In this document: in pieces, positions 15,956 through 62,027 of the stretch
How the letters are laid out: every line of letters begins with the position of its first letter
Numbering within the stretch: the first letter of the stretch is position 1
Assembly: GCA_032718475.1 (NCBI GenBank)
Contig: JAUCBJ010007289.1
Span: forward strand, 310,001 to 374,000
Length of the DNA: 64,000 bases
Reading direction: 5' to 3'
DNA from: Nemertoderma westbladi
Taxonomy: Eukaryota; Animalia; Xenacoelomorpha
Translations under genes and position numbers: made by a program
Notes under the pieces: model-generated
Told to the model about the DNA's origin: nothing
The model's input: only the letters and a program-made list of their open reading frames with translations
Database searches by the model: none

Positions 15956-16033
15956 CCACTCCCAGAAAATGGGATTCAAGTTTATAAATATACAAAAATC
16001 ACAGTTTCTAATATATGTAAATACTCTAAACAG

Positions 16034-19264: not shown

Positions 19265-19269
19265 TCCGG

Positions 19270-20286: not shown

Positions 20287-20365
20287 ATCTGCTATCTGAG
20301 TTTATTAATATCAAATGAGTTTATGTTTAGGCGAGCGGGCGTCGCTGCCTACCTCTCTTTGCCCC

Positions 20366-20470
20366 CGGACAGTGGGATTCTCAGCGCCGATGTACCGTCG
20401 TCGCGGTGTTTACGCCAACATGTAGCAACAGCACGACAACGATAACCGGCACAAGACACTCCACTGTCCG
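20366..20470 (-). other. Conserved RNA stem-loop upstream of the accessory ORF
   Basis: Outer stem CGGACAGTGG/CCACTGTCCG; the inner arms pair fully on the minus strand through G-U pairs. Homolog at 38729-38836. Confidence 0.55.
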
Positions 20471-24900: not shown

Positions 24901-25137
24901 CCCAAAAGCCTGGATGGTCATCCAGTACTCTACCGGTTTCTGGTTGAGGTCTCCTTCAGGCCACCACAGAAATCTCAGACTGTCTCTATCTCTATCCAGC
25001 GCCTTGACTTGTAAGAACATTCCTTCTATATCGGAGGCGAACGCGATGGAATATTGTCTTAATCTTAAAAGTATTCCCAACAAAGATTGGAGTAAGTTGG
25101 GTCCTGGTAACAACTCGGAATTGAGGGATTGGCCCAT
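21943..25137 (-). CDS. pol: Element 1 pol: RT, RNase H and integrase (continues the gag-PR frame past a premature stop)
   Basis: DIEGMFLQV, YMDD, HVFGDAS, YWTDS, NPADIASRG, H..H..C..C, GVDLFGP, SDKGTNF and GGSWER. There is an apparent frameshift near 22045, before RPVGRLCLL. Confidence 0.92.
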   Translation of the reverse strand: MGQSLNSELLPGPNLLQSLLGILLRLRQYSIAFASDIEGMFLQVKALDRDRDSLRFLWWPEGDLNQKPVEYWMTIQAFGIISSPSNTCSVVRTTANDNRDAFSKEVIDNIKRNIYMDDNLRSLPSVEEAIDVAKGTVECLKRGGFRLTKFTSNSREFLEAIPVEDRGAKDLDLIKDDLPETKMLGLKWDAEKDILFFQLKQRDNPVRTKRICLSILSTYFDPLGFISPVILIARSLVQQMWLENHSWDDPLKGELLKKWMKLEDSLPAIENFIISRAYFGHVLPTYSYQLHVFGDASDMGIGIVAYLRVETPDGIKVALVTSKALINNKLKVPRAELKAALYATAIGRNVTEQIDYPLEKTVYWTDSLLVLEYLTNEVCQFSVFVTNRVAIILSRTKIDQWRHCPGTINPADIASRGATPQELIDTPDWLGGPDFLSKEEDEWPPHLTTAEIRQAKGAETVKPKTRASKSKLFKPTIDLSVLHTSGNYASDPQSLATNKSVVEIRDRDWKSGIPDVSQGISPMLQRAMHHYSSWNRLCKAVTYLRRCFHHHYFRTKTISDTAPLTSAQVHVIKNLPKYKTSNRFLKEKIGYQEHEETNKQILRLLQCYEDSDKYFLLLRNPQMRLRDRFSSTMIDGLIRVGGRLTNAPLSFDTKFPILIRNLEVQIKMIVDVHSKLYHAGRERVLSEIRTRYYFYKPRRALNQVLRNCIPCRKAFSRPLTQREAELPRERVSFYEPPFTNTGVDLFGPIEVYRARTIVKRWCVIFVCMTCRAIHLDMVNDLSTNSFVLSLRRQIARFGTSNTMRSDKGTNFIGANNEIQAYVKDWNQRQVDDQLRITASSWTFNAADAPWWGGSWERLIRSVKTAFHFIVPCRAYLTDELLWTLMEEIAAYLNERPLMPVSSSPDSLEALTPAHFLLKKPVAMLPRSEIADGDEYCRRTWQLMQLLSRHFTDHFEKHYLPTLQLRTKWFAQQENVSAGDMVLIVDPDLPRKRWQTGRIIETHISDDGLVRSVELVVMRRNFKKPGIIFETHNSTAQLVVYVYWKETENSPETMEGKTLFPRPPP

Positions 25138-25164
25138 ATATAGAGTAGAGCCATCGAATACGAC

Positions 25165-28100
25165 TCATACTTCGTGGGGTTTACCGGGTTTGGGAACGTA
25201 ATGATGTGTTAAGTAATACGTTCTCTCAGTCACTGGTGTTCCTTCCGGTACTCGCTCCGCGTATCCCTTTGTTATAAATTTCTTCAACTGAGTTTGGTAC
25301 ATTTCTTTAGCTGAAGCATTGGCCGTAAGGCATTGATGTAATTGAGCGATTCTTTTCTCTGCCAAGGGTCTGTTATTTATAAATCTAGGTTCTCGTTTTC
25401 GAAATGGTAGGCCGATTTCATATCTACCTTGGTCCTTTAAAAAACGTGTAGTTGTTTCCTGGATTTGCTTGGCTCTTTCTTCTTCTATCGATAGGGCCTT
25501 ATCGTATGAATTGGGCTCTACCAATTCTTGAGTAAAGAATCGTACGGCGAGTTCGTCCCGAGTTCTGGCGTTGTAGCGCTCTATCTCATCATTTAGTTCG
25601 TCATTGTATTCAATGGGTCCCGATGGGCGAATCAGTTGACATAGGTTCACCTGGTTTTTCCACGTTTTGTTTTCTGTAAGTAGGTCGATTGTGTTCTCTT
25701 CATCGAAGAGTTGGTAGATGTCGTCATTATCTGAGGAGTATGGTGTTCCCTCAGTTAGTTCGTCCACCTCACTGCTCTCCTCTTCCCAATCGTTTACTTG
25801 GTATATTCGTTCTTGTGGCATTCTCTCTTCGAGAGTCCTGCGGGAAGGGCCAGTAAAGTACCAACCTACTCTAGTTCTTACCGCATAGGTTTGCAGTGGC
25901 TGCGGTTGAGCAGGCCGTTTCTCCAATGTTTCGAGCACCTCATGCGCGTTTTGGCCGATGAGTATTTGCACTCCAGGATAATCTGTCTGGAATCGAGGTA
26001 TCTTAAGATGTTGGATGCTCTCATCCTCGTCCCAATTATAAAGGTCTGCTTGGGTAGTAGCGAAGTTCTTTATAGCCACCATTTTTACCGACCTTATACC
26101 TTGTGCTCCTAATTTATCCTGGGGGGTGGACAACACACCTACATAGTAATCTGCCGTTAGGGTAGATTTCCAAACCTGCATAATTCCTGACATATTCAAT
26201 TTAGTCCGGAATTTGGGTTGTCCAGCAAAGATATCTTCGGCTAGTTCTTGATCGATGAATGTTCCTGTGCTGCCGGAGTCAAGGAGGGCGTTCACTATGT
26301 AACTTTTGTTAGGACCGTGAACTCTTACCTGCACTACAGGAAATTCTCTGATTCCTACGTTGGAAGTTGGAGCTTTCCAAGATGGTTGTCTGGCAAAAGT
26401 AGTTGGGGGAAACTCATTGTTGGTGTCCTTTTCATAAGTAAGTGCTCGATACACCGCGGTATTGATTAGATAACAGGATTCGTTGGCGTCGGAGAATTCG
26501 TCAGTATAGAATCCTTCCATCTCAGATTCTTGATCAGTGTCATTTACATCACTGAATTGGACATGTAGTTCGGGCTCACTTACCTGACTCGGGTTGTCTC
26601 GTTCGAACTCACTGTGTAACAAGATGTTATGTTTCGCGCCACACTTTGCACACTTTACGTCGGAGTAACAGGTTCGCCGTTGGTGTCCTGGTCTGAGGCA
26701 ATTATAGCATAACCGCTTATCCCACACGACTGCACGTCTGTCTACAAGGGATTTCTTTAGAAATTCAGCACACGCACTCAAACGGTGGGTCCCGTCGCAC
26801 AGCGCACAGTTAGGTTTTATGTTACTCACTTTACCTTGGGTAACCTGATGCACTCTCGTTCTTTCTTCGGGCTTTCTTCCGCGCATTCTGTTAGGAGACT
26901 GAGGAGGGGTCTTGGCAACCTGTTCTCTCCTATCGTTGGTTCGAGCCTTGTATTTACTTACGTCCTTTGAGGTTTTGCCAACGTAGTAAGATCGATCAGT
27001 GTCTTTCCCGCTGTCCTCTTCTTGAGAAGCTTGGCTTTCGCCGTCGTCAGTGTAACACACCGGTGTTACTCTTCTCCTAGAAGCGGGTTTCTCACTTACC
27101 TTATTTTCCGATGTTTTCTCTCTGGACTGCTTGATGAGTTGTAGTTTTACTTCACCATCTAAGAAGGACATGAGATCAGCCATGGTAGGGCTTCGTCGTT
27201 GTTGTTCATTCATGTACAACACTTTCTTGTCCCAGCGTGTACATACTCCACCCTTTGGTAAAGTAGAGACTACGGCTCCAATAACCATGGAACTCTGATA
27301 TTCATGAGATTTACCTAACCAGTCCAATTGTCTACAGATCTCCTGAATCTCATCGGAAAACTCTATAATCCCGCTACTAAGAAAGTTTCGGGGGGCTACT
27401 AATTTTGCATACAAATACTTAGCTATGTTATCCTTGTTACCATACCTGACGTTTAATGTATCCCAAACTTGTCTTAATCCTTCTGGATGTCCAATAAACT
27501 TTAACGCCATTAACTTGGGAGGTCCTTCCAAGCACTTGATGAGGAATCTAAGTTTCTCTCCGTTAGATAGTACAGAGTTCTGTATGCTATCTTTGTAATA
27601 TTCATTGAAAGGTAACCATTTCATCTCATCTCCATTGAATTTAATGATCTCTCCCACTTTGACCGCTTGGCGGGCTTCTGTTCTAGCCATCTGACGCGTA
27701 AAGCTTTCTTGGGCCATCGTGTTATTTAATATCGAATTATCGGTATATAAATTTCTCGGATCATTATCAGGTCTATAGGGAATATCATTAACAACAGGTT
27801 TATAATCACCCTTAATAGGGTTTGCTATAGGAGTTTCTACTTCACTAGCAGTATAGATGCGTGTAGGCTCCACACCTTGCGCATGTAATACTTCAGACCT
27901 AACAGGTTGACACAATGTTACTGGGGGTATTGGTATACCCTTTTGTATATTGACTAATTTGTCGCGTTCTAGCGCGATACTTCGCTGCACTTCTTGCAAT
28001 TCTGCCCTACCTTCCCTTACGGTTCCCTTAAGTTGGTGGACAGTCTCCTGCATCTGTCCGAGCAGGAGATTCATCCCCCGACGTCCCTCCTCTACCCACT

Positions 28101-30075
28101 CGACCGCCGAAGCGGGAGTCGCCAACATTGTAGCGGGCCGACGCGGGACGACGGGAGACAAATCCTTGATTTCTCTCTCAGTGCCCAGGACAGGGATATT
28201 CTCATGGACTGTTCTACCGGGTACAGGCAGTGTAGTACTGTGTAAAGGGAATTTAGAGTTAAGCTCTGGAAGTACAGGGGTCTCTAGCACAGGAGTGGCT
28301 TTGGGAATGACAGGCCTAATTATTTCAGGCTCATCAACTATAGTAGGGAGTCTTTTGACCTTAATAATTTGGTCTGTAGGTTCTATACTACTTAAGTCTG
28401 TGCTAGCTAGTTGTCTTCTAACAGCTGGGGGCAAATCAGGCAATTTGTGACGGTGAGATGTTTTTCTACGCCTGCTTAGACGAGATCTATTTCCTCCGCC
28501 TTCAGGATCGGTGGTTTCGCTTTCCTCCGATGATGTGTATCCCTGGCGTTTGGGAGTAGATCTTCTCATCATCTGCATGTGACTAGCAGTTAACTGTTTA
28601 TTTATGTTGTCTTGCGTCTCTTGCAGATTTTCCAACTCCAGTTGGGTAGTCTCCTCAGACGCTCTCCGTTCTGCTTCTGCCACTGCCTTTGCTGCTTTTC
28701 TTTCTACTTCTGCTTCTGCCATTGCCGCTGCTACTGCTGCTGCCTTTCTTTCCACTTCTGCTTCTGCCATTGCCGCTGCTACTGCTGCTGCCTTTCTTTC
28801 CACTTCTGCTTCTGCCATTACCGCTGCTACTGCTGCTGCCTTTCTTTCCACTTCTGCTTCTGCCATTACCGCTGCTACTGCTGCTGCCTTTCGGTCCTCT
28901 ATCCGTCTTTTCTTTACTTGTTCTTCTTGGACTCTAGCGAGGCGGAGTTTTTCATCAAATTTAGCTTGGTTCGCAGCTAACATTTCCGCATCGATTGAGT
29001 CCAACACAAGCTTGGTTCCTTCACTATTGGGGCGAAGTCCAGCCAGTCGTCTCCTCAACCCACGAACTTCATCACCCAAGAAGCGTTGATAGTCTGACAG
29101 ATAGATGTCTATGGCGTCTCTCCAGGGCGGCTTCTCTGCTGCTGTCTCTTCGCTTTCCACTTGAGAAAGGGTGGCATTGGTTGGTTCTTCATAGGTTGGT
29201 CTCTCAGCCAGCTGGGATTTCCACTGGGCCGTTTCTTGAACTTTGAGACCTACCCGCTGGAACCAAGTCTTGACAGCAACCTGCAGCAACGTGTCCTGTC
29301 TTCTTTTGGAAGTTTCCTCAAAGGCTGATAGGATTAGTCTAATGCGTAGGGTTCTTTCGCGTACTTGATAAAGCAGCTCTTCCTGCTCTTGAGGTCCTTG
29401 GGGTTGTCGAAACAGTTGTTCTTCCAATCTCTCTAAGGAGCCGAAGAATCCCTGCACATATCCTGCTGCCGACCTCTTCCAAACAGCTGGATCCATCGTA
29501 TCTTTAGCCACTCCCATCCTGTGTATATCTTCCCAAGTAGCTTCGGACAAATCTAACGGGAGTCCGGGTCCGGGAAAGTTCCATTGTGACTCGACAATAG
29601 ACATCAATTCTTCCCTGGCGTATCCCGCATAACTATCTTGGGTCGCTCGCTTACTTCTCGCCCAATCGGCTTGATGTTCCTCCACCGCAATCAATATTGT
29701 AGTTAGCACTGCGGCAGGAAGGGTGAGAAGGGGATCCGAGTAGGCTGTAGCCGCCATCTGCACTCCGCGTTCGGGGGTCAGCTCTACAGTATCCGAACTA
29801 CTGGAGCTATCGGGTCGCTGGGAACGAGTTTCTTGACTAGGATGTTGCTGCTGTTGGACAGCTGCTTCCTGGTTCCGTTTGACTTGGGCCCGAGTGCCGA
29901 TGATAGACCTACGGTGTTGGATTAGCTTAGGGTCTGATACTACTACTGGAGGGATGACCTTTCTTTCAGTAGGAGGTGAGCTGAACTCCTTTCTTAATCG
30001 CTCCACTCTCCTATCTGTGTCACAGATGGTTGTATCGATTAGACTGTCTGACAGGTTTTGCTGGGTGTCAGACAT
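25165..30075 (-). CDS. gag: Element 1 gag and aspartic protease
   Basis: KFNGDEMKWLPF, the BEL triple Cys-His knuckle (CALCDGTH..C, CYNCLRPGH..C, CAKCGAKHNILLH) and protease ALLDSGS. It ends at an in-frame TGA in HEV*VVFDG (expected RVVFD). Confidence 0.92.
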   Translation of the reverse strand: MSDTQQNLSDSLIDTTICDTDRRVERLRKEFSSPPTERKVIPPVVVSDPKLIQHRRSIIGTRAQVKRNQEAAVQQQQHPSQETRSQRPDSSSSSDTVELTPERGVQMAATAYSDPLLTLPAAVLTTILIAVEEHQADWARSKRATQDSYAGYAREELMSIVESQWNFPGPGLPLDLSEATWEDIHRMGVAKDTMDPAVWKRSAAGYVQGFFGSLERLEEQLFRQPQGPQEQEELLYQVRERTLRIRLILSAFEETSKRRQDTLLQVAVKTWFQRVGLKVQETAQWKSQLAERPTYEEPTNATLSQVESEETAAEKPPWRDAIDIYLSDYQRFLGDEVRGLRRRLAGLRPNSEGTKLVLDSIDAEMLAANQAKFDEKLRLARVQEEQVKKRRIEDRKAAAVAAVMAEAEVERKAAAVAAVMAEAEVERKAAAVAAAMAEAEVERKAAAVAAAMAEAEVERKAAKAVAEAERRASEETTQLELENLQETQDNINKQLTASHMQMMRRSTPKRQGYTSSEESETTDPEGGGNRSRLSRRRKTSHRHKLPDLPPAVRRQLASTDLSSIEPTDQIIKVKRLPTIVDEPEIIRPVIPKATPVLETPVLPELNSKFPLHSTTLPVPGRTVHENIPVLGTEREIKDLSPVVPRRPATMLATPASAVEWVEEGRRGMNLLLGQMQETVHQLKGTVREGRAELQEVQRSIALERDKLVNIQKGIPIPPVTLCQPVRSEVLHAQGVEPTRIYTASEVETPIANPIKGDYKPVVNDIPYRPDNDPRNLYTDNSILNNTMAQESFTRQMARTEARQAVKVGEIIKFNGDEMKWLPFNEYYKDSIQNSVLSNGEKLRFLIKCLEGPPKLMALKFIGHPEGLRQVWDTLNVRYGNKDNIAKYLYAKLVAPRNFLSSGIIEFSDEIQEICRQLDWLGKSHEYQSSMVIGAVVSTLPKGGVCTRWDKKVLYMNEQQRRSPTMADLMSFLDGEVKLQLIKQSREKTSENKVSEKPASRRRVTPVCYTDDGESQASQEEDSGKDTDRSYYVGKTSKDVSKYKARTNDRREQVAKTPPQSPNRMRGRKPEERTRVHQVTQGKVSNIKPNCALCDGTHRLSACAEFLKKSLVDRRAVVWDKRLCYNCLRPGHQRRTCYSDVKCAKCGAKHNILLHSEFERDNPSQVSEPELHVQFSDVNDTDQESEMEGFYTDEFSDANESCYLINTAVYRALTYEKDTNNEFPPTTFARQPSWKAPTSNVGIREFPVVQVRVHGPNKSYIVNALLDSGSTGTFIDQELAEDIFAGQPKFRTKLNMSGIMQVWKSTLTADYYVGVLSTPQDKLGAQGIRSVKMVAIKNFATTQADLYNWDEDESIQHLKIPRFQTDYPGVQILIGQNAHEVLETLEKRPAQPQPLQTYAVRTRVGWYFTGPSRRTLEERMPQERIYQVNDWEEESSEVDELTEGTPYSSDNDDIYQLFDEENTIDLLTENKTWKNQVNLCQLIRPSGPIEYNDELNDEIERYNARTRDELAVRFFTQELVEPNSYDKALSIEEERAKQIQETTTRFLKDQGRYEIGLPFRKREPRFINNRPLAEKRIAQLHQCLTANASAKEMYQTQLKKFITKGYAERVPEGTPVTERTYYLTHHYVPKPGKPHEV
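28690..28890 (-). repeat. 48-bp coding tandem repeat in gag, (KAAAVAAxMAEAEVER) x4
   Basis: Visible at both the DNA and protein level. Confidence 0.9.
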
Positions 30076-31399
30076 GTTTAGCTATACAGTTGAATGCCTA
30101 CTGCTATAGTTACAGTTAAAGCAAGTCTAGTAATTCAGTATGACCGTTGGCCTAGTACCGTTAATTTATTACAGTATATTAGAATACCGGTATACACTTA
30201 TAATATATATAAGTATTGTAAACTAGTTTTGTCACAGAGTACCAGTATATAATTTTAGCACAAATATATATAAATATATAATACGCCTATCATGAATACC
30301 GGTATACAGCTTACACTTATAGTATATATAAGTATAATTATGAACTAGAATTAATTACAGAATACCGGTATGATTTCAGCCCAAATTTATAGAAATAAAT
30401 ATAATAAGCCTATGGTAAATACCGGTATGTCAATTATTTTAGAATAATTGAATTTCTGAATATTTTAGGGTTACTTGGTTACTTTAACTTACTTTATTAC
30501 CGTTATTTAAGCAGTAGTCCAACTGATATTGAGACCTAGTTGTTGTATGGCAGGCCTACTATTTATAAATCGTTTGAGTTGATTTATAATATTTATATAC
30601 CCATTTAAAATGGGTTTTGTCAATATTTGAAATAAATGTTATTATTTCTGGGGGAAGTCACTACACAGAAGCTGTGCGCTCTCAGTGAAGTGCTACTTAT
30701 GGGACACTAAAACAGATAATTCTAATTTACCTAAGTTACTTAATACTACAAATTACTTACAATACGGGTGAGATTAAATCTCTAATTAAACACAACAAAA
30801 TATTACGTACGAAATTTTTAGGGTAATTTTACAGGAAGTCTACAAACCAGCCTAACAAAGGGTTAGAATTCTGGTTATTACAACGGACAGGGTACTACGG
30901 TATTTGAAAATAATAAGTAGTAGTAAATACACTGCGTTGTCCAGATAGGAAAATACCACCGCCTGACGACCTATAGCCGTATCGCTGTAGGTACTACGTT
31001 ATGTATCACGGAGTGTTCCTACCTGGAAGTTAATTACCGCGGACTACCAGATCCAACGTGCCTATTAACCACTTTACAACACAAATATACTGCCTACACA
31101 CTAATTACCTTCGGAAAGCACTGTACACTAAACCCTAAATTAGGTACAAATACTGGTACAACAAATAATCAGTAGTTAAATATACTTGAACAGTTAAAAG
31201 AACCACGGCATCTGCTGGAGTGACCGGAGCACAAAGTCACCAGTCTTTACCTACGCCAAGCAGCCCGTGTAGTACCGGGGTTAATTTAACTATAACGGTA
31301 TGTGTAACAAGCACAATTACTGTAGGAATAAACTTGGGGACATGAATGTTGCGAATAATCGCATAAACTCTGAATAATAAATATTACGCTACCCGTACA

Positions 31400-31945
31400 G
31401 AATACTCAAACAAAATACAAACCAAACGCTGGCAGACTACCACCAAGCCTAAATAAACTACAGTATGTGCAGATTCCGAAATGGTTAGTTAGTATGCGTT
31501 CTAACACGGTAGCACGACTTATTCTTTAAGAGGGGATTGACCTTACATCTATGGCTGCCCCAACTTACTAACTGGCACTTTATCAGACAAACTCTACACA
31601 CGCAGCAATCTCTTCAGACCTAATAATAGCTAGACAACAATCCAGCCTACAAAATATCTGAGTAATAACTATTACGGTACCTGAACAGACCACACAAACA
31701 AACACAGGCCAAAACGCTGGCAGAATACTGTCAAGCCTAAATAAACTACAGTATGTGCAGATTCCAAAATGGTTAGTTAGTATGCGTTCTAACACGGTAG
31801 TACGACTTATTCTTTAAGAGGGGATTGACCTTACAGCCCTGGCTGCCCCAACTTACTAACTGGCACTTTATCGGACAAACTCCACACACGCCGCAATCTC
31901 TCCAGACTCAACAACAGTCAGACAACAGTCCAGCCTACAATTATC
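31400..31945. repeat. Direct duplication of about 250 bp in the element 1 leader
   Basis: AAACGCTGGCAG..CAAGCCTAAATAAACTACAGTATGTGCAGATTCC..CTGGCACTTTATC occurs near 31425 and 31712; element 2 has an equivalent duplication at about 45950-46510. Confidence 0.8.
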
Positions 31946-32124
31946 TGAACAATCTGAGCAGACTTACACGTCTTCAGCTCAATATTAACTTACATGTAAA
32001 TAAAACCGACAGAAATAAGTAAAATCTCAATAAAAAACCAGGGCGGCCGTTCCCTGATTAAGTACTAAGACCTACCGGTATACAACAATCAAAATCGAAT
32101 AATACTAATGTACTTATACTGGAA

Positions 32125-32362
32125 GTACCGGTTAGGACAGTTGGGCCTACAGACCTACAGCAGTACCGATTCTGGCAGTTGGGCCTACGGACCTACAGCA
32201 GTACCGGTTCAAGCAGTTGGGCCTACGGACCTACAGCAGTACCGATTCTGGCAGTTGGGCCTACGGACCTACAGCAGTACCGGTTCAAGCAGTTGGGCCT
32301 ACGGACCTACAGCAGTACCGATTCTGGCAGTTGGGCCTACGAACCTACAGCAGTACCGGTTC
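32125..32362. repeat. 38-bp tandem repeat (about 6 copies, alternating A/B variants) in the element 1 leader
   Basis: GTACCGATTCTGGCAGTTGGGCCTACGGACCTACAGCA alternates with the GTACCGGTTCAAGC variant. About 3 copies are present in element 2 (46695-46815). Confidence 0.9.
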
Positions 32363-32416
32363 AGGTTTACCGGTCGACCGGTACTTTCAACTTTATTGCT
32401 TACTGCAATAAAGTCA

Positions 32417-32427
32417 ATAACTGTTAT
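32417..32427 (-). promoter_or_regulatory. Atypical primer-binding site of element 1 (ATAACAGTTAT), complementary to its own LTR
   Basis: Abuts the 5' LTR, does not start with TGG, and is the exact complement of the LTR motif at 33184-33194 and 15517-15527. Confidence 0.7.
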
Positions 32428-33622
32428 TGTACGCGCTTTTGAAGACCTTTAGCAGTTTAACCTGCCAAAATTTATATGTCTTTTGGTTTATAAATAGACT
32501 TTAGAAATTGACAAATATTTAATACCAATAAACACAACATTAGCAGAAGCCAGCCTAGTGCGCGTCCATTCACCCGCTGGATATACCCGGGAGACTGGAT
32601 TCTGAGGGCTTAGATTGTTATTGCAGTGTAAGCTTACTGTATTATTCGATTGATCGCTAATAAATAATTTCTGACCAATATTATTCACTTTCGGGAAATA
32701 TTAACAGTTCCTTTAGGACGTGGCGCTCTATCTAGGTAAACAGAGATATGACTTATACTAAACACAACGGTAAGTCGGTAAGGCTTATGATTCACGTATG
32801 AGGCGCATTCTTTAGGAAATGCTTAGTTATCAGCCACAATCATGCACACTACCGGTAACACACAATACTGCTCACTAATTTGCCGACCATCAATTAATTT
32901 TATCATATATAAAGAGAACAGCAACTGACTCATGTAGTGCTTATCAAATAGCATTAAATTCACTACAAACCACAATAATATAAGTCGCAATCGCTATATG
33001 TAACCCGTCTCTCTAACCTGTAGTGTATCAAGAAAATTGGGAAATTTGGGTTCTTTATAGATGTTCTCCAAATAATATTCAACCAAATGATACAAAATAT
33101 GACAACAGTAAATAGCAGTCTAATAATGTATGTTGAACCGATAATGTAAGACTGAACTGGACTGTTAAGACTTGATTGAGCCGATAACAGTTATAAGCTC
33201 TATAATCTAAGCCTACTAATGTTTCTTCTAAAGTCTGAAACGAATTGACTCTAGAGCCGGTGTTCTTGGCCTAGATAGAAACAACACAACAGTATCACAA
33301 AAAAACAGTAAGACTGAACACTCCTAGCATGATCTGCCAAATATCTCCACATCGACAGAAAAAATCGCTCTGATTGGCTGTTAAGCTAAACAAAGAACCA
33401 TGTGTCCAATGGCCGTTTCCATGTCAGCAACCAGCTGTTAGATGTCGTAATCTGAATCATCAAGGCTAAGCTGTGCCAGGGTATTTGACGCATTGCGGGT
33501 TTTTTGCCTTACCATGTCCGCCAAAGCACACATACAGAAGAATGACTTTTATGTCCGTTAAAACACCTATAACGGTACCTTGCGGGCGAGGGGGACTGAT
33601 TATATCCGCAAAAGCTTTTACA
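32428..33622 (-). repeat. 5' LTR of element 1 (1195 bp)
   Basis: The minus strand reads TGTAAAAGCTTTTGCG...CAAAAGCGCGTACA, with a CCAAT box near 33375. Confidence 0.95.
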
Positions 33623-35805: not shown

Positions 35806-36004
35806 TACTACTACTAGGTCGAGAGAACTCGGACAGTGGAAATGAGATCCTTCCAGGCTTCCCGATTCTCCATAGTTGTCGCAAATTCGTTTCTCACAAG
35901 TTCAGTATCCCTTTCAAGTTGATCTATATATGTTATGGCCGGTTGTCCACGACTACGCTTTCCATGAGTTGGTTGCCAGAAAAGTAGACCTGGTATGACC
36001 TCGT
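35806..36004 (-). mobile_element. 3' end of RTE-like LINE 2 (split by element 2)
   Basis: The minus strand encodes LLFWQPTHGKRSRGQPAITYIDQLERDT..MENREAW and is followed by (TAG)n; it continues the RLRFSGHC sequence near 48150. Confidence 0.85.
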
Positions 36005-37242: not shown

Positions 37243-37320
37243 CCGCTCCCAGAAAATGGGATTTAAGTCTATAAAATATAACAAATCACAGTTTCTAAAA
37301 TATAAAGATACTCTAAACAG

Positions 37321-46873: not shown

Positions 46874-46884
46874 ATATCCTTTAT
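46874..46884 (-). promoter_or_regulatory. Atypical primer-binding site of element 2 (ATAAAGGATAT), complementary to its own LTR
   Basis: Abuts the 5' LTR and is the exact complement of the LTR motif at 47608-47618 and 36728-36738. Confidence 0.7.
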
Positions 46885-48885: not shown

Positions 48886-48937
48886 CATCTCTCTATCATT
48901 CGCATGAAAATCCTAATTTCCTATTCTATAACATTAA

Positions 48938-51569: not shown

Positions 51570-52103
51570 TGTGACGGGATCCAAGGGGGATCCCGGTTTA
51601 TCCGGTTTTAGTTCACGCGTCCCCGCCGTCTATAAAGAGTGAATAAGTTCGTGCTGTTTGTCGTATATAATATGATATGCAGGTATAGATATAGATATAG
51701 ATATATTGTCGTATACGGAAGGCGGGATACGGTAACTAAAGTCCCGGTCCTTCCCTATCTAAAACTATGTAACCTAATCTAGCACCGGTATTGCACTGAG
51801 ATAACTGAACTGATATGATTACAGGTTACTGGTTATATTGCACGGTGGCCTTATTGCTACTCAATCGATGCCTTTCCCCCCTCTGATTGGTTGATACCCT
51901 TGTTGGCGCCCTTTGGAGTGTTCCCGTTCACTCCACCTATTCTCTCTGGGTTAGGGGTTTGGCCCCTGACCCTCATTGTGTGCTTCTCCTTCCCATTCTC
52001 ATTGGGATGGCACAAGTTGGTTAATTACCCAATCTCGTGGCTCCCAATATTGCTTATCGGCTTATAACTTTATGGGGTGTTAGCGGGATTGAATAAGCTA
52101 ACA
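51570..52103 (-). repeat. Putative 3' LTR of element 3 (534 bp)
   Basis: TGT..ACA ends, and the G-rich PPT GGGGGGGAG immediately precedes it on the minus strand (52104-52112). The second LTR is not in the window. Confidence 0.7.
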
Positions 52104-52742
52104 CTCCCCCCCATGCTATCTTCCCGGTAAGAAGATAGCATCAACCAAAAAGTGCGCTACAATCCCTGAAGTGCTGCTACCCTGTGTGCCTGGCGTCTCA
52201 TGTCGGGCCGATCGCGCTCACCTCTCACGCAACTTTTGTTTCCCCAACACTTCCGCCCTATCTCTTCTTCACTCTCATCCTAACTCTCTCATACATTCGG
52301 ACCTCCTCGTCCCTTACTCAGTCTCTTATTCTCCCCCCCCCCCCACACTAGAATTGCGTCCGCACTCTCTCTGTACTTCGCACTATTACTCTGTCCCTCA
52401 ACCCTACTTCGACTGCCTCATCCCTTCAGACGAATCTCCCCCCCCCCCCCCCCTCTTGTGCCGTCGCACTCAAGAAGTGTGAAATTGTCTGGTGTCTCGT
52501 CCATAGTGCCATAGTCAGTTATCCCCCAGTCCCAGTAGCTAATTGAGAAAGGTTGTATGACTATAGTACTTACTCCCATCGTATATTCGTAGATTACTAA
52601 TTACTACGTACGTACATACAAATTGCACTTATATGATTATTTGCATTAATTAAATTTGTACTTAATAGTTCGTACGTCCCACGCGGCGCCTTCCAGGCGC
52701 ACCACGTCCCAGTCTCAGTCTCTATCCCTCGACTTTGGGAAC

Positions 52743-55292
52743 CTATCTGTTCCTCTGGGGATAGTTCCCCCTGGCGTCCTCTTCCCTGGGCCGTTTCTTG
52801 GTTATCACCGTTCCTCTGGCATCATCCGCTTTCTGCTTTCGGACCTTCGCCGCCACCTCCCTGCTGATCCCGGTCGTTGGCTCCTTGGGCGCTGGTGTTA
52901 TTAGTGCCCGATACCGCTTCGCCGGTGGCCCCTCAGAGTGGCCCGGTTGTCTCCCTCTGGTGGCGTCCCATAGGATCATTTTCATTGCCTTTGGTACGTG
53001 CTCCGCCAAGAAATCCCTAAACTCCCTTCGGTACTCTGGCGTCCACCTGTCCAAGTATCTTTGCGTGTTCATCACTCCAGCGTACGACGCCGCCGTTGCT
53101 ACCTCTTGGTAGGTAAACGGTAGCCTCCGCTTTATGATTTCCATGTGAGTCTCCTGATTGATAAGGAAGAAACCCCACTTGAACTCCTGGGCCTTCATGC
53201 GCTGGTGCGTCATGGCCCCGACGTCGGCCCACTCCTCGAATCTTGTGAACTTCTCCTCGTCGTTCATCCAGTCGCACTCGCGTCCGTAGTGTCCCCGAAA
53301 GTGGCACTTTGGACATCGGTTATGCAACCGTGGACACGCCCCCATCCTGTGGCTTGGTTCTCTGCAGTAGAGACAAAAGGTTCCCTTTTGGAACCGGTAT
53401 AGGCAGCTGCTTTCCCGATGGGTCTGTCTCCCACAGTAGTCGCAGCCGAGTACCAATGTCTCCCGTCCCACCTCGTCTTTCGTCCCAAGCGATCTCCGCG
53501 GTCTGTGGAGTCGCTGGTAGGCGAACTTCTCTACGTTGGTCTCTCTATCTACGTCGATCTCTCCGCCCCTCTCGGGCATCGTCTCCCCGAATACTATCCG
53601 TGGTGCCGTCCCCGGTTGCTCACCCAACCTGATGGTGCTCCCCGCGAAATCCATCGCCGGCTCCTCGTGCACCCAGGTCCGCTTGCCGGATCTGTTCCAG
53701 AAGGCCCTCGCCCCACTGGCCGTCACCACCCTTCCGCCAACCCAGTCCGTGTCCGAGTGGCCTATCCTCTCGATGGGCGGCATCTCTCCGAACTCGTCGT
53801 CGTCGTCCTCCTCTTCTGGTAGTGTCTCCAATCCCGGTATCCCGATGGATCCACTATGTCCCTTCCCGCCTTGGCTCTCGCCCGTAGCTCTCCATCCCTC
53901 TAGCTCCCTTAACTTCCTTGGCGGTTGGTCGCCCTCGGCGCCCGCTGGTATGGGCATCGTTTGCAACCCCGACGTCGACTGTTTCGGCGATCCCACTGTC
54001 CATCCCAATTCTCGCCCTAGAGACTCCCCCGAACTCCCTGATGAAGTCCAATGAAGTTCGTCTAGGCCTGCCTGTTCCTCGAAGCCGTAACTCTGTGTCC
54101 TGGCCTCCTCTTCCCTCTCCTCTGCTTCTATCCTCTCCCGTCTAGCGACTTCTTCCAGTCGCTTTGCTTCTCGTCTATCCGTCTCTAGCTGCTCCCATCT
54201 CTGATACGGTGTATCTGTCTCCCCGTCTACCAGATGTCGGCTGTTGTAGTACACCGACTCGCCCTTCAGCCCCGGGTGGTCTACCAGACAGTCAAAGGCC
54301 ACTTTAAAGGCTCTCCTGTAGCTTAGGGGTGATCCCGATAACAGAAATGCCCCTGGTTCCCTCTCGATAACCACGGTCATGAATAAGTTAAGCAAACTTA
54401 TCATCATCCAGTCCTCCTGCAGGATATATCGCTTCTGATATACCTTTATCGCTCCCCTGCGGAACTGATATACCTCCTGCTTTCCCGGTCTCGCTCCCCA
54501 CTTTAGCGAGTTCGCTAGTTCTGCTCCGTATTCTTCCCTAAACTTCCCCCAATCCATCGGTTTATGGCATACGAGCCCCAATAATTGGCCCATTGCCACC
54601 GCCCCGCATTGGCCTGTGTTTTCGACTACCCCCAACCCATCCGGTGCCGTCATAGCCATAATGACTTTCTGCATATCCAGGAGGTTGGTGGCGTCTGGAC
54701 CGATGATCCTCTCCGCGTCCTCGCGAATCGCCGATCCCACTTTCGTCGTCGACTTCTCTCTCACTAAGACCTGTACCGCTTTCGGTAACCGGTCTAGTTT
54801 CGGCCCGTCCTTCTTCCCATACGTCCCTAGGTCGAATAAGAAGATGTCCCCATTTGGCGCGGCCAAATGTAGGAGTATGGTCCTGGCCGACCCCGCAGTT
54901 CCTCGTCTCGAACCCGCCTCGTCTTCCACGGTTCCCTCATCATCTAGGATCATATATCCTCCTCTGTTGACGGACTCTATGAATCTCTTCCAGTCCTTCC
55001 TCGGTGATTCCCTCGGGTACTTCGGAATCCCGAACTTCGCCTCGTCCCCTTTCACCACGTAGTGGAAGTGTTGGAAGATCGCGTTGTCCAGCGACGGCGT
55101 CCCGTAGGTCCCGACCAGCCGCTGTTCGTGCATCTCCCTGAAGTGATCCTGCAGCGCTCGCGCTGCGTGACCCCTCACCAACCTCTCGTAGTATCCTCTC
55201 GTCTTCTCTTCCGGATGCCTCTCGGTGAAATCCACCAGTATCTCCTTTCCTCCTGACTCCGCTTTTCTCTTTCTGATCAGCTTACTCGCCAT
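52743..55292 (-). CDS. Element 3 accessory ORF (849 aa, open): DEDDy-like 3'-5' exonuclease plus three CCHC knuckles
   Basis: MILDDEG, LLHLAAPNGDIFLFDL, LPKAVQVLV..KVGSAIRED, LLDMQ and YQKRYILQED; knuckles CDYCGRQTHRESSC, CLYCREPSHRMGAC and CPKCHFRGHYGREC. Confidence 0.8.
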   Translation of the reverse strand: MASKLIRKRKAESGGKEILVDFTERHPEEKTRGYYERLVRGHAARALQDHFREMHEQRLVGTYGTPSLDNAIFQHFHYVVKGDEAKFGIPKYPRESPRKDWKRFIESVNRGGYMILDDEGTVEDEAGSRRGTAGSARTILLHLAAPNGDIFLFDLGTYGKKDGPKLDRLPKAVQVLVREKSTTKVGSAIREDAERIIGPDATNLLDMQKVIMAMTAPDGLGVVENTGQCGAVAMGQLLGLVCHKPMDWGKFREEYGAELANSLKWGARPGKQEVYQFRRGAIKVYQKRYILQEDWMMISLLNLFMTVVIEREPGAFLLSGSPLSYRRAFKVAFDCLVDHPGLKGESVYYNSRHLVDGETDTPYQRWEQLETDRREAKRLEEVARRERIEAEEREEEARTQSYGFEEQAGLDELHWTSSGSSGESLGRELGWTVGSPKQSTSGLQTMPIPAGAEGDQPPRKLRELEGWRATGESQGGKGHSGSIGIPGLETLPEEEDDDDEFGEMPPIERIGHSDTDWVGGRVVTASGARAFWNRSGKRTWVHEEPAMDFAGSTIRLGEQPGTAPRIVFGETMPERGGEIDVDRETNVEKFAYQRLHRPRRSLGTKDEVGRETLVLGCDYCGRQTHRESSCLYRFQKGTFCLYCREPSHRMGACPRLHNRCPKCHFRGHYGRECDWMNDEEKFTRFEEWADVGAMTHQRMKAQEFKWGFFLINQETHMEIIKRRLPFTYQEVATAASYAGVMNTQRYLDRWTPEYRREFRDFLAEHVPKAMKMILWDATRGRQPGHSEGPPAKRYRALITPAPKEPTTGISREVAAKVRKQKADDARGTVITKKRPREEDARGNYPQRNR

Positions 55293-55780
55293 TCCGAACG
55301 TTCACTCGCTCACCTGCAAGGTGGTGCCTTACCAAGGTGCAATACAGATGAGTGATGTATCTAAGATGTTCTGTACGGTTCGATAATGGCCTATTTCCTA
55401 CTTAACTGCGCCTTTTAACCTAAATTATTCCTAATTAATTTTGAAGCTAGTAAATGAGCGTAATTTACAATTTCTGTCCGTTACTTTTATTATGTTCTAG
55501 AATAACTTCCCTTGTGTTGCCACTATTTTACAACTTTCAGCCCTATTCTATTTATTTATCTATTTTAATTTGATTCTACTGTCCTGCTACTTACTACTGC
55601 CTATGGATTATTCTATTCTCTAATCCACATTCTGGCCTACTCTGTGGGTCTATGCAGTGCAGCAGTATGCGTCGTGTGGCCACACGACTTACCCAGCTGT
55701 ACTCATATGCCCCCCTCTCTCTACTAACTGCTAACTAATATCTATATCTATATCCCCCTTTACCTCTTACTCTCTCTCTT

Positions 55781-56320
55781 CTAACTAACGGTACTACGTA
55801 CCCTCTAACTCTCTAACTAACTAGCGGTACTTATGTACCCTCTAACTCTCTAACTAACTATCGGTACTACGTACCCTCTAACTCTCTAACTAACTATCGG
55901 TACTACGTACCCTCTAACTCTCTACCTAACTAGCGGTACTTACGTACCCTCTAACTCTCTAACTAACTATCGGTACTACGTACCCTCTAACTCTCTAACT
56001 AACTAGCGGTACTTACGTACCCTCTAACTCTCTAACTCTCTAACTAACTAGCGGTACTTACGTACCCTCTAACTCTCTAACTAACTATCGGTACTACGTA
56101 CCCTCTAACTCTCTAACTAACTAGCGGTACTTACGTACCCTCTAACTCTCTAACTAACTAGCGGTACTTACGTACCCTCTAACTAACTAACTAACTAGCG
56201 GTACTTACGTACCCTCTAACTCTCTAACTAACTAGCGGTACTTACGTACCCTCTAACTAACTAACTAACTAGGTACTACGTACCTTCTAACTAACTAACT
56301 GACCAGGTACTACGTACCTC
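55781..56320. repeat. 36-37 bp tandem array (about 15 copies) between pol and the accessory ORF of element 3
   Basis: CTAACTAACTAGCGGTACTTACGTACCCTCTAACTCT units, each with a GGTAC..GTACC inverted core. Confidence 0.9.
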
Positions 56321-56476
56321 TTAACAAACTTCTGCCTACTAACTGCGTACCTAGCATGTACTATTATTTATTTTATTTTTTTTTTTTTTCTATTTTGTTT
56401 GTGGGAAGGGCGTCTCGCCCTCAATCCCACCCCCCTCAGTCCAAAACTTGGACGACTAAACTTTTCTCTAACTCTG

Positions 56477-58116
56477 CTATGGTGCCCCTTCTAATAGACA
56501 GCATTTGCCTACAGCTCTCCTGTAGGTTTTTCTGTCCTTCGCACCTATCTTTCCACCTATCCGCACTTCTACCAATCGGACTCTTCCGTCCTCGTCGGAG
56601 TAGGTGCCTACAACTCTCGCCAACCGCCATTGGTTGTTGATGATAGTATCATCCGTAACGATTACGAGATCTCCTACTCTTAACTCCCTGTTCGGCTTCC
56701 TCCACTTGCTTCGCTTATGGAGCGTGGGTAGGTATTCCTCGACCCACCTCCTCCAATACTCTGCGCTTATTGCCTTTGCGACTTTCCAACTTTGGCGGGA
56801 GTGTATGTCATCTGGGTCTATACCCCGCATATCGATGGTCGCTGGCCTTTCCATCAGGAAATGGCTAGGCGTCAGCATGTCTAGTGACTCAGGGTCATCA
56901 TTCTCCGGATATAGCGGTCTGCTATTAATGATCCCCTCGCACTTCGCAAGTACCGTCCGTAAGATGTCCTCAGTGACCATGTGGGTGTTCATTAGCTTCG
57001 TCATTAGACGCTTTGAACTGCCCACCAGTCTCTCGACGCATCCTAGTGTATGTGGTGCATACGGCGTCCTTCTCTCCCACTTTACTTGTCATCGTCTCAT
57101 GGCTGCCCTGACTTCTTCTCCCTCCAAGATGTCCAAGGCATCTGCCATCTCACTCTCTGCGCCCACAAAGTTAGTGCCGTTGTCGCTGTATATCACTGTG
57201 ATCGTCCCACCTTTGCGGTCCCTAAACCTTTCTAAGGCGTTAATGAACACCGATGCGGTTGCATCTTGGGCGAGTTCTATCCCTACCGCCCGCGTATTGT
57301 TGCATACGAAGATAATGCCGTAGCGTTTCTCCGTGTGTCGCATCACTTTGATCTTTATCGGCCCGAACATGTCCACACCGCAATGCGTAAATGGCGGGTC
57401 GTGCTGTCTTACCCTACGGCTCGCTCCTTCTTCGCTCATCGGCAGGTCTGGCACTGCCCCACTACCGCTTTTACCTTCTTCCTCAGTTGTTTGACCCAAT
57501 AGGTCCTCCTTATCTCTGTGAGGGTTCGGTTGGTGCCCCCATGTAATATCGATTTGTGGGAGTCCCATATAATCTGGTGGACTATTGGCGATCCTGTAGG
57601 AATGATGATGGGTTTCGGTGGTATGACTATGCTGTTGTTATATCCCACCCTAGAATTCATTACTAGAATCCCGTCGTCATTGAGTTGTGGCGACAGCGTA
57701 ATCAGCTCGCTGTCCCGTCGGAGGTGCTGTTGGTTACCGACGCGTTCCACCTCGTCGCCGTAGTTCTTCCGTTGTTCATAGTGGATCACTGCCTTGGCCG
57801 CTCCTTCCAGATCTATGGTTGTCCTGATCTTCTTGTCCTTGCCAACTCCCGCAAGGAAATTTCCGAAGGCTCTCCAGTACGCCACTAGTTTCTTGGTCTT
57901 ATACCAACTAGAACTGTAGCTGAGGAGTTTATCCGTCGGGTTATCGCACAGTTCCCGTCCTGGTTGCACGTCCCTAATCTCCCTCACCACCTGGGAGTAT
58001 ATCTCTTCTCCCTCTGAATCTCCCTCTTCTCCTTCTGATACTACTTCCGAGCCCGGGTCTACCTTCCTCATCGGCGGCCAGGCCTCCATATCGCTAAGAA
58101 ATTGTGGCCCATGTTG
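56477..58116 (-). pseudogene. Element 3 integrase region, frameshifted into several ORFs
   Basis: HKSILHGG..CQTC, CGVDMFGP, YSDNGTNF, INSRPL and RRAVGKCCLL. Confidence 0.9.
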
Positions 58117-61061
58117 CTACAATACTTCTTTCTTCAGGAAAGTGTGGCGTTCCACGCCCCTCGACAGCAAGTCTGCTGGGTTCTCGTCTGTTGGGCAGTA
58201 GTGCCACCTTCCCAGTTCTGTGCTCGCCCTTATTTCGTCCACTCTATTCGCGACGAATATCGGGTATCTCGTCCTTTCGTTATGTAGCCAACCAAGCACT
58301 ACCATGGAGTCCGTCCAGTAGTGTGTCTCCACTATGTTGGGAATAGTATCCACTAGGTAGGCTGTGGCTCTTACTCCTAGTCTCGCAGCTGTCAATTCTA
58401 ACTTGGGAACTGATGCTGAATCTGGTGGCGTTGACTTTGCTTTACTAAAGGCTAGTCTTGGCTTATGAGCCCCCTCTCGTTGTACTAAGTAGAGTGCCGC
58501 TCCGTACGCTTCCAACGACGCGTCGGAGAACATGTGTATGTCCAGATTCGTCATGTTCCCAACCGGGAAATACACCCGTGGCATGTTGTATGTTCCCATC
58601 TTCTCCAAGTCTCCTGTCCACTTGCTCCACTGCTTCTTGATTTCCTCTGGTACCTCTACGTCCCACTCATCTTTCAATTTGTATACTCTCTTGAGTATCT
58701 GTTTCCCCGTGACTAATAATGGGGATGCTAGGCCTAGGGGATCGTATATCCTTGCTATATACGATACATAACCCCTCTTCGTGTGGATGTCTGCACCCTC
58801 CTGGCTCAGCTGATCCTGGCTCCTGGCTCCTGGCTTCAGTTCGTCTGTCTCTCTATCCCACATGATTCCCAATGCCTTCTGCTGGGATTCCGTTCTCTTA
58901 ATCGCCATGTCCTGCCCTTTGGCTGTTGTGGGATTATCCATGGTCGATTCTGGTTTCCTGTCCTCTATGGCTTTGATAAATTCTTCTGAACTGGATTGGA
59001 ATTTGGTCAGGTTAAAGCCGGATCCTTTTAGGATGTCGCGAACCTCGCGCCCTGTATCCAGTATCTCCTTAACCGTATTTCCAGACTCCATTCCGTCGTC
59101 TACGTAGAAGCCGCGTCGAATCATATCGACGGCCCTACTGCTGTATCTATCTTCCTTCCCCTTTACTGTGTCTCTCACTGCCATGGTCGTCGTAAATGAA
59201 GACGACTTGGCCCCCATGTTCTGTACTACCATCTTATATGCCGATATTATCGACGGTTCTTCCTCGCCGTTATACCATAAGAAGCGCTGACTGTCGCTAT
59301 CTTCCTCCGTTACACGGACTTGGTTGAACATGCCTTCTATGTCACACGTGAAGGCGTGTTTCCCATTCCTAAATCTAAGTAACACCTCTATGCCCGAATT
59401 GTATATGTTTGGGCCTTCTAACAGGTAGTCGTTTAAGCACTTTCCGTCGGTCTTTGCCGATGCGTCGACTACCATCCTTAGTTTACCTTTCTTTGGATCT
59501 AAAGCCACGTGCAGTGGCAGGTAATATGTCCTATCCGTGTTCGGCTCGTCGACCGGTAACTCCACGGCCCACCCTTTCTCGACGTACTTCTTAATGGTTC
59601 TGTGGATGTACTCATTCTTCTCGGGGCTCCGTTTTAGTGTTTGTTTCAGTTTGCGGAGTCTCGTGAGTACCATCCCCCTATTGTCGGGCAGCGGTATCTT
59701 CGGTAGTTTCCATACCATTCCTATAGTATACCGTCCCTCATCGCATGTCATTGATTCCTCCACGCTTTGTAGAGCCTGCTTGTCTTCTACTGAGGTCCCG
59801 ACTCTGGTTTCTTTCAGTCCCTCGAAATCCTGTCTGAGCAGTCTTTTAAGCTGCTCCTCTGCTCCCTCGTCACCCATTTCCAGCATTGTTCCCGCGAACA
59901 TGCATCCTGATGTCTCCGACATCCTAAATGGTATCTTGCTCTTAATTGGACCACTCAGCGTCCACCCGAATGGTGTTAATATGGCCACCGGGTCACTCTG
60001 CTTGTCTTCGCCGAAGACCGTTTGCATTCTTTCGTGGGCCGTTGGGCAGTCCATACCTACTATGATGGATACCTTCCTAACGTCCACGTCTGGGATTGAG
60101 AAGTCAATGTCGTCCAGGAATTTATATTGCTCGACCTCGATGTTGGTTGGTCGCCTGGCATTGATATTAATTGACTCTATCACTTGGATGGGGTCAATGG
60201 TTGCCCCATAGTCGCATCCTGGTGCCACTGCTGCAATTGCGCACCATCCTGTTCTCATCTCCAGGATCTCATCTTTGCTAGAGATGGTTGTTACCGCCAT
60301 CCTGCTTGGCCTCGTTCTCAATCCTATATCCTCGGCAACCCATTCTTCGACTAATGTGTAGGCAGCTCCACTATCAACCAGCATTAGCGTTGTTACTGAT
60401 CGATTGCCTTCCCCAATCACTCGCACGGGTACTACTCCAAGTAGCACCGTTCCTCCCTTCTTCGCTCCTACTGTGCTCGTCGCCATCGTTTGGCCTCTCC
60501 TTTGACCAAATTTTATCGGCTTCTCCTTGCACTCCCTTGCTCTATGTCCACTCATTACACATCGCGAGTAGATTTTATTGCTGAACGCATAATCTATCTG
60601 ATCCTGCCTAGGTAGCGCCTGCCAGTACCTGCAGTTCATGGTTTGATGAAGCGCATTTGCGTGTAGCTGGCATTTGCTCTTTGGGTCGTAGCCCTCTTTA
60701 TACAGTGTATTGCGTATCGCAGTTGCGTTTGTACCAAAGTCCCTACTATTCTTATTGTTTGGACTTAGCCTACTGGACGTACTGGGGTTATGTTTATTCG
60801 TGTTGTTATTATTTCCCTGTCCGTTCCATGATGTTGTCTTATCCTCGGCTAGCTGTGGACTTGCAGTCCCCTGCGTCGCTGCATATGGCAATGATTGCCT
60901 GAGTCTCGGTAATGCGTTTGATGTGTTGTGCTCTGGTTTCGGTCTATGGTAGTCTGTCTTCGGTCCCTTTCCCAGGCTGTCTTCGCTATAGACTGGGTCA
61001 GTTATTAGCTCAGCCTCGTAGTTTAAGAAGTTTGACATTTCTTCTAAACCCGGTTCCGCAC
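58117..61061 (-). CDS. pol: Element 3 gag C-terminus, PR, RT and RNase H
   Basis: LVDSGA, LRMVVDAS, DIEGMFNQV, FYVDD, HMFSDAS, YWTDS and ENPADLLSRG. The frame extends upstream (AEPGLEEMSNFL) to the insertion at 61062. Confidence 0.9.
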
Positions 61062-62027
61062 TGTTACGGTATATGGCGCTGTATCCACATTATTAGTCCG
61101 TTATACTGTACGTAATATTAGTCCGTTGTGCAGCATAATATTTTAGATAAGGTATAATAGCGAGGTGATATTTAGATAGGGAAATCAAAACGCCCATGTA
61201 TTTGAATCCATCCATTTTGTATAATATGTAGCCCTACCTACGTAATTTTGTATTAGGATATATGTAGATAGTTCCAGGGTAGCAAGTTCAGTTGGACCCT
61301 GGATTTTGTGCTTGCTGTTATTAGCTTCAATAGGGCTAGCATATAGGGACGCTGTCCTGGCCATTCAGCAGCCAGGGACATGATCCATTACCATATATGG
61401 TAATAATTTGAGTTTTGGGCAGCAATACGGCTACAATCCGGCCTCCTTATTGGACTAGCTACTTCCAGGTTGGTCTAATGCTAGCGCGGACTGGAGAGCC
61501 AATAGGAGAGCGATTGAGTCACCCTATTGCATCACCCCACTCGGATCACCTATAAATTGGCGGTGTGCCGGTAGAGCTCTATTCTATCCCCAACCTTATT
61601 CACCTACAATCCCTATTCACTTTTGACGGATATTTTGTTAGAAGTATAATTTAGCGTATTTTCTGCAATTTGCTATTTTCGATTAATTTCTCAAAATGAT
61701 TTGCTAGTGCGATTATTCTTAATTGCGTTTCTCAATCAACCCTATCGATTACTGCTAATTACAATCGGAACTATGATTTCTACCTCCTTTTGTTAATGGT
61801 TCTATGTGATTCCTTTCTACGCAATAATCCTAAGGGATTTCTGAGACTGTCAGACTTTGTGATTTTGCATGCGCCGCTACGGTAGCTATTAGCATAATGG
61901 AGGGCTAAGGTGCCAGTAGGCGGTGGGCACATCGGGGGGTTGAGCGACTAAGGGAGAGCGGAGGATTCAAAGGCGGGCAACGCTGGCGGGGGGTCACCGT
62001 TGCGGTCGGGCGTTTTGCACTGTAACA
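61062..62027 (+). mobile_element. Putative 5' LTR of a fourth LTR element nested in element 3 gag, followed by a long non-coding leader to the window end
   Basis: TGTTAC..GTAACA inverted ends, CCAAT (about 61499) and TATAAA (about 61551) on the plus strand, and homology to 1-515. The right boundary is inferred from the terminal motif only. Confidence 0.6.

Follow-up and report, generated by a model that had tools for sequence, protein, structure and literature searches.

Introduction

Genes for DEDDy exonucleases are known as third open reading frames (ORF3s) in the Juno and Vesta LTR retrotransposons of bdelloid rotifers and in Terminons (PMC5408684), which, according to the accessible parts of the literature, have been gained more than once and passed from one class of element to another (PMC5408684, PMC6431247, PMC5718144). 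A DEDDh nuclease is carried by KolobokD (PMC9587614). The exonuclease TbRND, the RNase D of Trypanosoma brucei, depends on tandem CCHC zinc knuckles to bind and cleave RNA, a domain combination called very unusual in that paper (PMC7797062). For BEL/Pao elements, the Belpaoviridae profile names gag, pol and env as the only genes and gives a length of 4.2-10 kb (PMC8742986).

Here we analyze a window of 64,000 nt (the whole stretch of DNA studied, positions 310,001 to 374,000 of contig JAUCBJ010007289.1) from Nemertoderma westbladi, in which a multi-copy BEL/Pao element carries an exonuclease-knuckle ORF, a real gene, after its pol and before its 3' end.

Results

An earlier note on this DNA, made from the sequence alone, had reported an open 849-aa ORF (P0001) beside a distant BEL pol in what we call element 3. 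The ATG-to-stop frame is confirmed on the minus strand (55292..52743), and the pol upstream of it contains, in BEL/Pao order, Asp_protease, RVT_1, Peptidase_A17 (E 3.6e-40), Integrase_H2C2, rve, and DUF5641 (E 6.9e-26) as identified with Pfam. On this PR-RT-RH-IN order with BEL-specific domains, element 3 is assigned to BEL/Pao (Belpaoviridae). Its features are as follows.

52743..55292, minus: accessory ORF of element 3, 849 aa (P0001), called from ATG to stop; homologue of an ORF in element 1
54363..55007, minus: predicted EXD2/WRN-like DEDDy 3'-5' exonuclease domain of P0001, about aa 96-310, from profile match, residues D117/E119/D192/Y289/E293 and Atlas
53463..54257, minus: linker of P0001, aa 346-610, acidic, Gly/Ser/Pro-rich and by composition likely disordered, with a short helical stretch
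53274..53444, minus: three tandem CX2CX4HX4C zinc knuckles of P0001, aa 617, 640 and 660, from pattern and profile
53073..53255, minus: family-specific post-knuckle segment of P0001, FE..AD.G...R....WGF, from alignment and profile
55293..56476, minus: non-coding spacer of 1184 nt between pol and ORF
55774-56318: 37-nt tandem array in the spacer
55321-55313: single splice-acceptor-like site in the spacer, putative in function
56477..61089, minus: gag C-terminus, protease, reverse transcriptase (RT), RNase H and integrase of element 3, without the DUF1759 gag part
58117-58119 and 57089-57091 (in-frame stops), near 57430 (frameshift): lesions in element 3 pol
52112-52104, minus: candidate polypurine tract, a purine run followed by TG
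51570..52112, minus: candidate polypurine tract and 3' LTR together, the LTR reading TG at 52103 and CA at 51570, with uncertainty about its inner edge

The repeat has a sharp boundary at 51569/51570, where the coding strand reads CA, and the purine run and TG at 52112-52103 likely mark the start of the 3' LTR. No second LTR copy was detected for element 3 within the 64-kb window, and repeat depth runs on to position 64000. The LTR had been described as unrelated to those of the neighboring elements; the 3' end of element 3 is indeed unlike the LTRs of elements 1 and 2 in BLASTN (best E 0.9), but this comparison rests on one end because there is no paired 5' LTR within the window. DUF1759 was not matched by Pfam in element 3, nor did the N-terminus of the element-1 gag give a tblastn match above position 50000. 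The long ORF begins just before the gag knuckles, the capsid-type gag part is absent in 58117-64000 (minus), and the 2.9 kb upstream are non-coding, with a longest stop-free stretch of 111 codons. This absence could reflect a deletion in a single copy, a location beyond the window, or a gag-less family leaning on another element.

The homologous ORF lies in element 1, a second and complete BEL element of the window.

14753..33622, minus: element 1, complete BEL element with paired LTRs and a 5-bp target duplication, enclosing the homologous ORF
16034..19372, minus: homologous ORF of element 1, 1112 aa from stop to stop (P0002), identified by homology to P0001
18190-17453 (exonuclease part, approximate) and 16963-16766 (knuckles), minus: parts of P0002
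19270..20301, minus: extra ORF of element 1, 343 aa, between pol and the exonuclease ORF, without a Pfam match

Element 1 spans 18.9 kb, and its LTRs (14753-15955 and 32428-33622) are 98.75% identical. In both BEL families the ORF occupies the same place, downstream of pol and toward the 3' end, and the RT-RNase H regions of the two elements are 37.6% identical, in agreement with the distant pol that had been noted. The further claim of a same architecture holds for the post-pol placement and the domain set, but not for the details, as element 1 carries the extra 343-aa ORF, P0002 is longer, with its first exonuclease motif at residue 411 vs 115 in P0001, and two of its three knuckle positions fit the CCHC pattern vs all three in P0001. 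The 343-aa ORF did not match the exonuclease-knuckle family; it contains a Cys/His cluster (C-x2-C ... H-x-H ... C-x2-H) and has a decayed copy in element 2. Element 1 is inserted in a 63-nt minisatellite (14677-14764 and 33615-34317) with a 5-bp duplication. Element 2 (36004-48123, minus) is related to element 1; its LTRs are 99.8% identical, it has a target duplication of 5 bp, and it retains an open 1438-aa gag-protease ORF. It has lost the RT, the integrase, and most of the exonuclease ORF, and likely represents a recently moved, non-autonomous gag-only family.

The window also includes neighboring fibrinogen-C and laminin-G genes (Pfam), which would fit an invertebrate animal as host. A fibrinogen C-terminal domain gene is present in two copies (2820-3463 and 13151-13877; 93.5% identical), and an inverted BEL pol fragment (3473-4302) breaks up one of them. 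Non-LTR reverse transcriptase fragments at 716-2137 and 48158-48892 are presumably RTE-like, and perfect 170-nt inverted repeats at 48968-49958 surround a 189-aa ORF without a significant Pfam match, which we take to resemble a GIY-YIG/Penelope-type endonuclease fragment.

All motif pairs previously quoted were located in P0001 and P0002, respectively: ILDDEG (115) and TYDNEG (411), KVGSAIRED (184) and KIGSAVYGD (506), CPRLH (653) and CPQFM (849), CPKCHFRGH (660) and CHHCQLKGH (856), FEEWADVG (685) and WEANADLH (890), and KWGFF (705) and YEGVY (910). In a direct BLASTP comparison, significance was confined to the knuckles (E 2e-5, vs 0.08 for the exonuclease), and with Cys/His masked the similarity of the knuckle region dropped to p about 0.04-0.05. 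Global alignment of hand-chosen exonuclease windows brought three motifs into line, with an identity of 22% and a z of 5.1. A profile of the two sequences searched against 1.84 billion proteins yielded 52 matches at E ≤ 0.001; 27 of the longer matches were retained as a family set and the other 25 were left out, and none of the 20 relatives looked up carries an informative name. Profiles of these 27 relatives, which exclude the window proteins, were then scored separately for each protein part: P0001 and P0002 reached 64.1 and 57.4 bits for the exonuclease, 45.5 and 44.5 bits for the knuckles, and 26.9 and 16.0 bits for the post-knuckle motif. For the same parts, 400 shuffled controls gave at most 4.1, 4.6, and 7.7 bits, and no ORF among 6026 taken from 80 other BEL loci exceeded 11.5, 10.4, and 10.3. 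The test is partly circular because the relatives were retrieved with the P0001-P0002 pair; most of them were ranked on the zinc region, however, and this ranking has little bearing on the exonuclease match. On these profile scores, we consider it established that P0001 and P0002 are true but distant homologues beyond generic knuckles. A likeness through generic knuckles alone, the outcome named beforehand as speaking against a shared gene, is ruled out, since the exonuclease and post-knuckle parts match too.

The relatives are long unspliced ORFs, and the longest listed contig measures 9-13 kb for 11 of 20 clusters and more for 2, which together give a weak hint that they are mobile too. All invariant columns of the family fall in the knuckles. 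One member (P0003) contains the zinc module twice, another (P0032) shows erosion of the exonuclease part and is greatly lengthened at its N-terminus, and four (P0031, P0040, P0037, and P0051) have lost most catalytic residues and kept the knuckles. Word-indexed protein searches returned no new relative; where there was a match at all, it was to the query's own member. Scans of metagenome contigs with the exonuclease part, of viral contigs with family proteins, and of genome contigs did not recover the DNA context of the relatives, and a scan of viral contigs with BEL RT gave no match.

The nature of the exonuclease domain emerged at the level of the family. P0001 alone matched no Pfam family, the window proteins individually gave no Pfam exonuclease match, and a single exonuclease part had no match in the PDB; PF01612 was matched by 6 of the 29 family members, below its cut-off. 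The best PDB match of the 29-sequence family profile was EXD2 (6K17, E 1.6e-11) over exonuclease motifs I-II, followed by weaker matches to Lin28 (knuckles, 3e-5), TbRND (knuckles, 3e-4; whole, 0.044), WRN (1.2e-3), and Egalitarian (1.8e-3), and the tandem CCHC arrays matched the RNA-binding proteins Lin28, AIR2, and TbRND. In the Atlas, P0001 and P0002 fell to DNA_pol_A_exo1 clusters (0.93 and 0.92), which together with the EXD2 match bears out the exonuclease call of the earlier note. The top Atlas match of both exonuclease parts is an unnamed 213-aa cluster labelled mostly Basidiomycota, and the element-1 part also matches 3'-5' exonucleases of Nucleocytoviricota, a possible lead to a donor.

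The ExoI D-x-E and the ExoII Asp are present in P0001 and are retained in the family in 20/27 (D), 22/27 (E), and 21/27 (D) relatives. At the ExoIII Y-x3-D position, Y289 is present and the acid is Glu (E293) instead of Asp, as in P0002 and 4 of the 27 relatives, Asp being found in 18. Four acidic positions are kept by both window proteins and 18/27 relatives; among the nine relatives without all four, two miss the first motif in the alignment and four have lost most. With Glu replacing Asp as the final catalytic residue of P0001 and P0002, activity may be low. AlphaFold models built from single sequences, with no alignment, were of low confidence (pLDDT 37.0 and 32.5), the only confident part being a helix near aa 371-400 in the P0001 linker. 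Maximum 19-residue hydropathy is 1.3 and 1.1 in the two window proteins, and thus no transmembrane helix is expected; an env function is excluded by this lack together with the nuclease and knuckle domains. Overall, the profile matches and active-site residues support an EXD2/WRN-like DEDDy exonuclease domain in P0001, with Glu as the fourth acid, as a predicted enzyme.

We next consider the state of the gene in this copy and in the element 3 family. Summed contig depth in run X1 is about 27,000-99,000 over the ORF and pol vs about 220-520 on the flank; although this is not a copy number, it shows that element 3 is a multi-copy family with the ORF as a regular part. Of 397 variable ORF sites, the 40 best supported include 27 at third codon positions and 24 with silent changes, and for the exonuclease part the corresponding counts are 14/15 and 13/15; the 40 variant rows are selected, linked on shared contigs, and not independent, such that the nominal p of 1e-5 overstates the signal. 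Since variation among the other copies is mostly silent, the family conserves the accessory gene under selection. For the window copy, in contrast, the listed sites at which it differs from all other contigs are at first or second codon positions in 3/3 cases for the ORF and 4/5 for pol, a pattern of neutral decay. The ORF had been reported as open next to a pol with frameshifts. It is open, but the lesions of pol are two in-frame stops and a single frameshift. Given 3 lesions in the 4.6 kb of pol, a 2.55-kb ORF would stay unbroken by chance with p about 0.19-0.27, so that selective retention in this copy, as previously implied, is not supported; the copy is decaying and its ORF has simply not yet been hit. 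It is accordingly very improbable that the ORF of this copy is held open by host selection (domestication, largely refuted by the chance estimate and the decay-like changes) or is part of another element nested here. A purine run just past the pol stop and the tandem array of the spacer might suggest nesting, but the element-1 homologue sits inside paired LTRs, and ORF and pol depth are alike.

Shared position and motifs had also been read as an old, vertically kept gene defining a BEL subclade, to be examined by comparing RT and ORF trees. RT-RNase H trees were built from 38 of 80 outside BEL loci (one HSP ≥ 330 aa) and from a 20-locus subset, with 200 bootstraps. Elements 1 and 3, both long branches, formed an RT clade in 30% and 20% of the 200 bootstrap trees (AU p 0.22), and P0001 and P0002 were united in 0/200 bootstraps of the ORF tree (AU p 0.33), in which P0001 grouped with P0004, P0005, and P0008 (98/96). 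Monophyly is not rejected by either comparison, and yet neither tree supports the clade. The accessory ORF was found in none of the 80 outside BEL loci, a weak count because only 33 reach the pol end, most of them stopping within about 2 kb, and 11 neighboring ORFs from these loci gave no exonuclease match in Pfam. For 10 of the 33, an upstream repeat recurs within about 2 kb of the pol end, as an LTR in the clearest cases, leaving no room for an accessory ORF; BEL elements without the gene, with an LTR soon after pol, do exist.

A single capture in an ancestral BEL element followed by vertical descent, marking a subclade, rather than a module exchanged among elements, is possible, but we lean against it. 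The same position in two BEL families this far apart in RT, the Glu at the last catalytic position that is otherwise found in 4 of 27 relatives, and the AU tests are all compatible with this scenario, but it is at odds with the low bootstrap values, and the exonuclease parts of the two ORFs are 16% identical to one another, whereas each is more identical to outside relatives, at up to 23-27%. The RT of element 1 is likewise nearer to outside BELs (44-46% identity) than to element 3, including one (L008) whose LTR follows 120 nt after pol. Rotifer DEDDy ORFs, moreover, were gained at least twice and are shared with Penelope-like elements, according to the accessible part of PMC5408684. The status of the gene as a vertically kept marker of a BEL subclade is at best weak.

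Discussion

We tentatively propose, at a little short of an even chance, that P0001 is an accessory gene product working as an RNA 3'-end enzyme for the element. The ORF would be expressed from its own, perhaps spliced, message, and its CCHC knuckles would grip single-stranded RNA and feed the 3' end into the nuclease, whose metal-dependent 3'-5' activity is predicted and whose substrate, by analogy with TbRND, would be RNA. The element may benefit if tailed or small RNAs that act in its silencing are trimmed or degraded, or if its own RNA ends are matured. This proposal is favored because of the TbRND-like layout, in which the CCHC array is needed for efficient trimming. It is weakened by the Glu in place of the last catalytic Asp in both window proteins, by the 9/27 relatives without all four acids, and by a linker of about 265 aa that far exceeds the 28 residues of TbRND. 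In addition, EXD2, the closest solved match, and WRN act on DNA as well.

The Glu substitution would also fit an adaptor that, like Egalitarian or EXD1, binds RNA with weak or no catalysis and would route, protect, or package element RNA or serve as a decoy for the host piRNA machinery. Egalitarian is among the PDB matches, the invariant columns of the family all lie in the knuckles, the knuckles and post-knuckle motif persist in the four of 27 relatives from which most acids are gone, and EXD1 and Maelstrom are named as inactive DEDD derivatives in the accessible part of PMC5408684. We nevertheless regard such an adaptor as unlikely, if far from fanciful, given that the four acids are kept in 18/27 relatives and both window proteins and that the exonuclease part is the richest in silent variation (13/15).

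Somewhat more doubtful is a DNA 3'-5' exonuclease that would proofread or polish the ends of the element's cDNA ahead of integration, while its knuckles would play a nucleocapsid-like part. Best matches to EXD2 and WRN, basic termini resembling nuclear localization signals in both proteins (KLIRKRK and KKRPR; KKLRKRRPRKK), and the DNA role proposed for the KolobokD DEDDh nuclease (PMC9587614, accessible part) are in line with this idea, which however has to contend with a separate downstream ORF lacking an evident route into the particle, with CCHC arrays that match RNA-binding proteins, and with the existence of BEL elements lacking the accessory gene. Returning to the RNA 3'-end enzyme, a broader version is a speculative extension that we consider improbable as a whole: a widespread, unnamed, transposon-borne exonuclease-triple-knuckle family, convergent on TbRND, would serve large BEL/Pao elements of an old lineage as a counter-silencing enzyme, acting on host piRNAs/siRNAs or decay-marking tails by trimming or destroying them.

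As far as searched, an exonuclease-knuckle accessory gene is new to BEL/Pao, extra nucleases being already known in other mobile elements. We found no report of such a gene in BEL elements, although Repbase, GyDB, and subscription literature, which lay beyond the reach of the search, may contain one; the word "exonuclease" is absent from the accessible main texts of a BEL/Pao survey, an LTR network paper, and a 2026 env survey. Third BEL/Pao genes are described in these sources only as env-like, and the present gene would be an enzyme-type accessory gene. It widens the rotifer exonuclease-ORF observation to another superfamily, with a gene under selection in a multi-copy family and at least 27 long unnamed relatives, and it defines a protein family missed by Pfam. 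The intact ORF offers a testable candidate for the means by which LTR elements of animals deal with RNA-based silencing or process RNA ends.

Compared with known systems, the family resembles the EXD2/WRN/Egalitarian clan (PF01612) in its profile match over exonuclease motifs I-II. EXD2, WRN, and Egalitarian are host genes without a knuckle array. TbRND, like P0001, carries a tandem CCHC array on the C-terminal side of its 3'-5' exonuclease, but is a host enzyme that trims gRNA U-tails and has four knuckles and a 28-aa linker (PMC7797062, accessible part); its likeness is probably convergent because the sequence matches are weak. The env-like third ORF of Belpaoviridae shares with P0001 a place between pol and the 3' LTR (PMC8742986), whereas P0001 is not a glycoprotein, has no predicted transmembrane helix, and carries nuclease and knuckle domains; element 1 also exceeds the profile's length range (PMC8742986). 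The rotifer DEDDy ORF3 is similar in being a DEDDy-type ORF downstream of pol without a transmembrane segment, with one Asp-to-Glu change in its motif and an activity that is predicted only. As described in the accessible part of PMC5408684, it is RNase D-like with the motif DEED and no triple-knuckle module, and in this comparison by description P0001 differs in its BEL/Pao host, its EXD2/WRN-like domain, the Glu at the fourth position, and its three CCHC knuckles with the post-knuckle motif.
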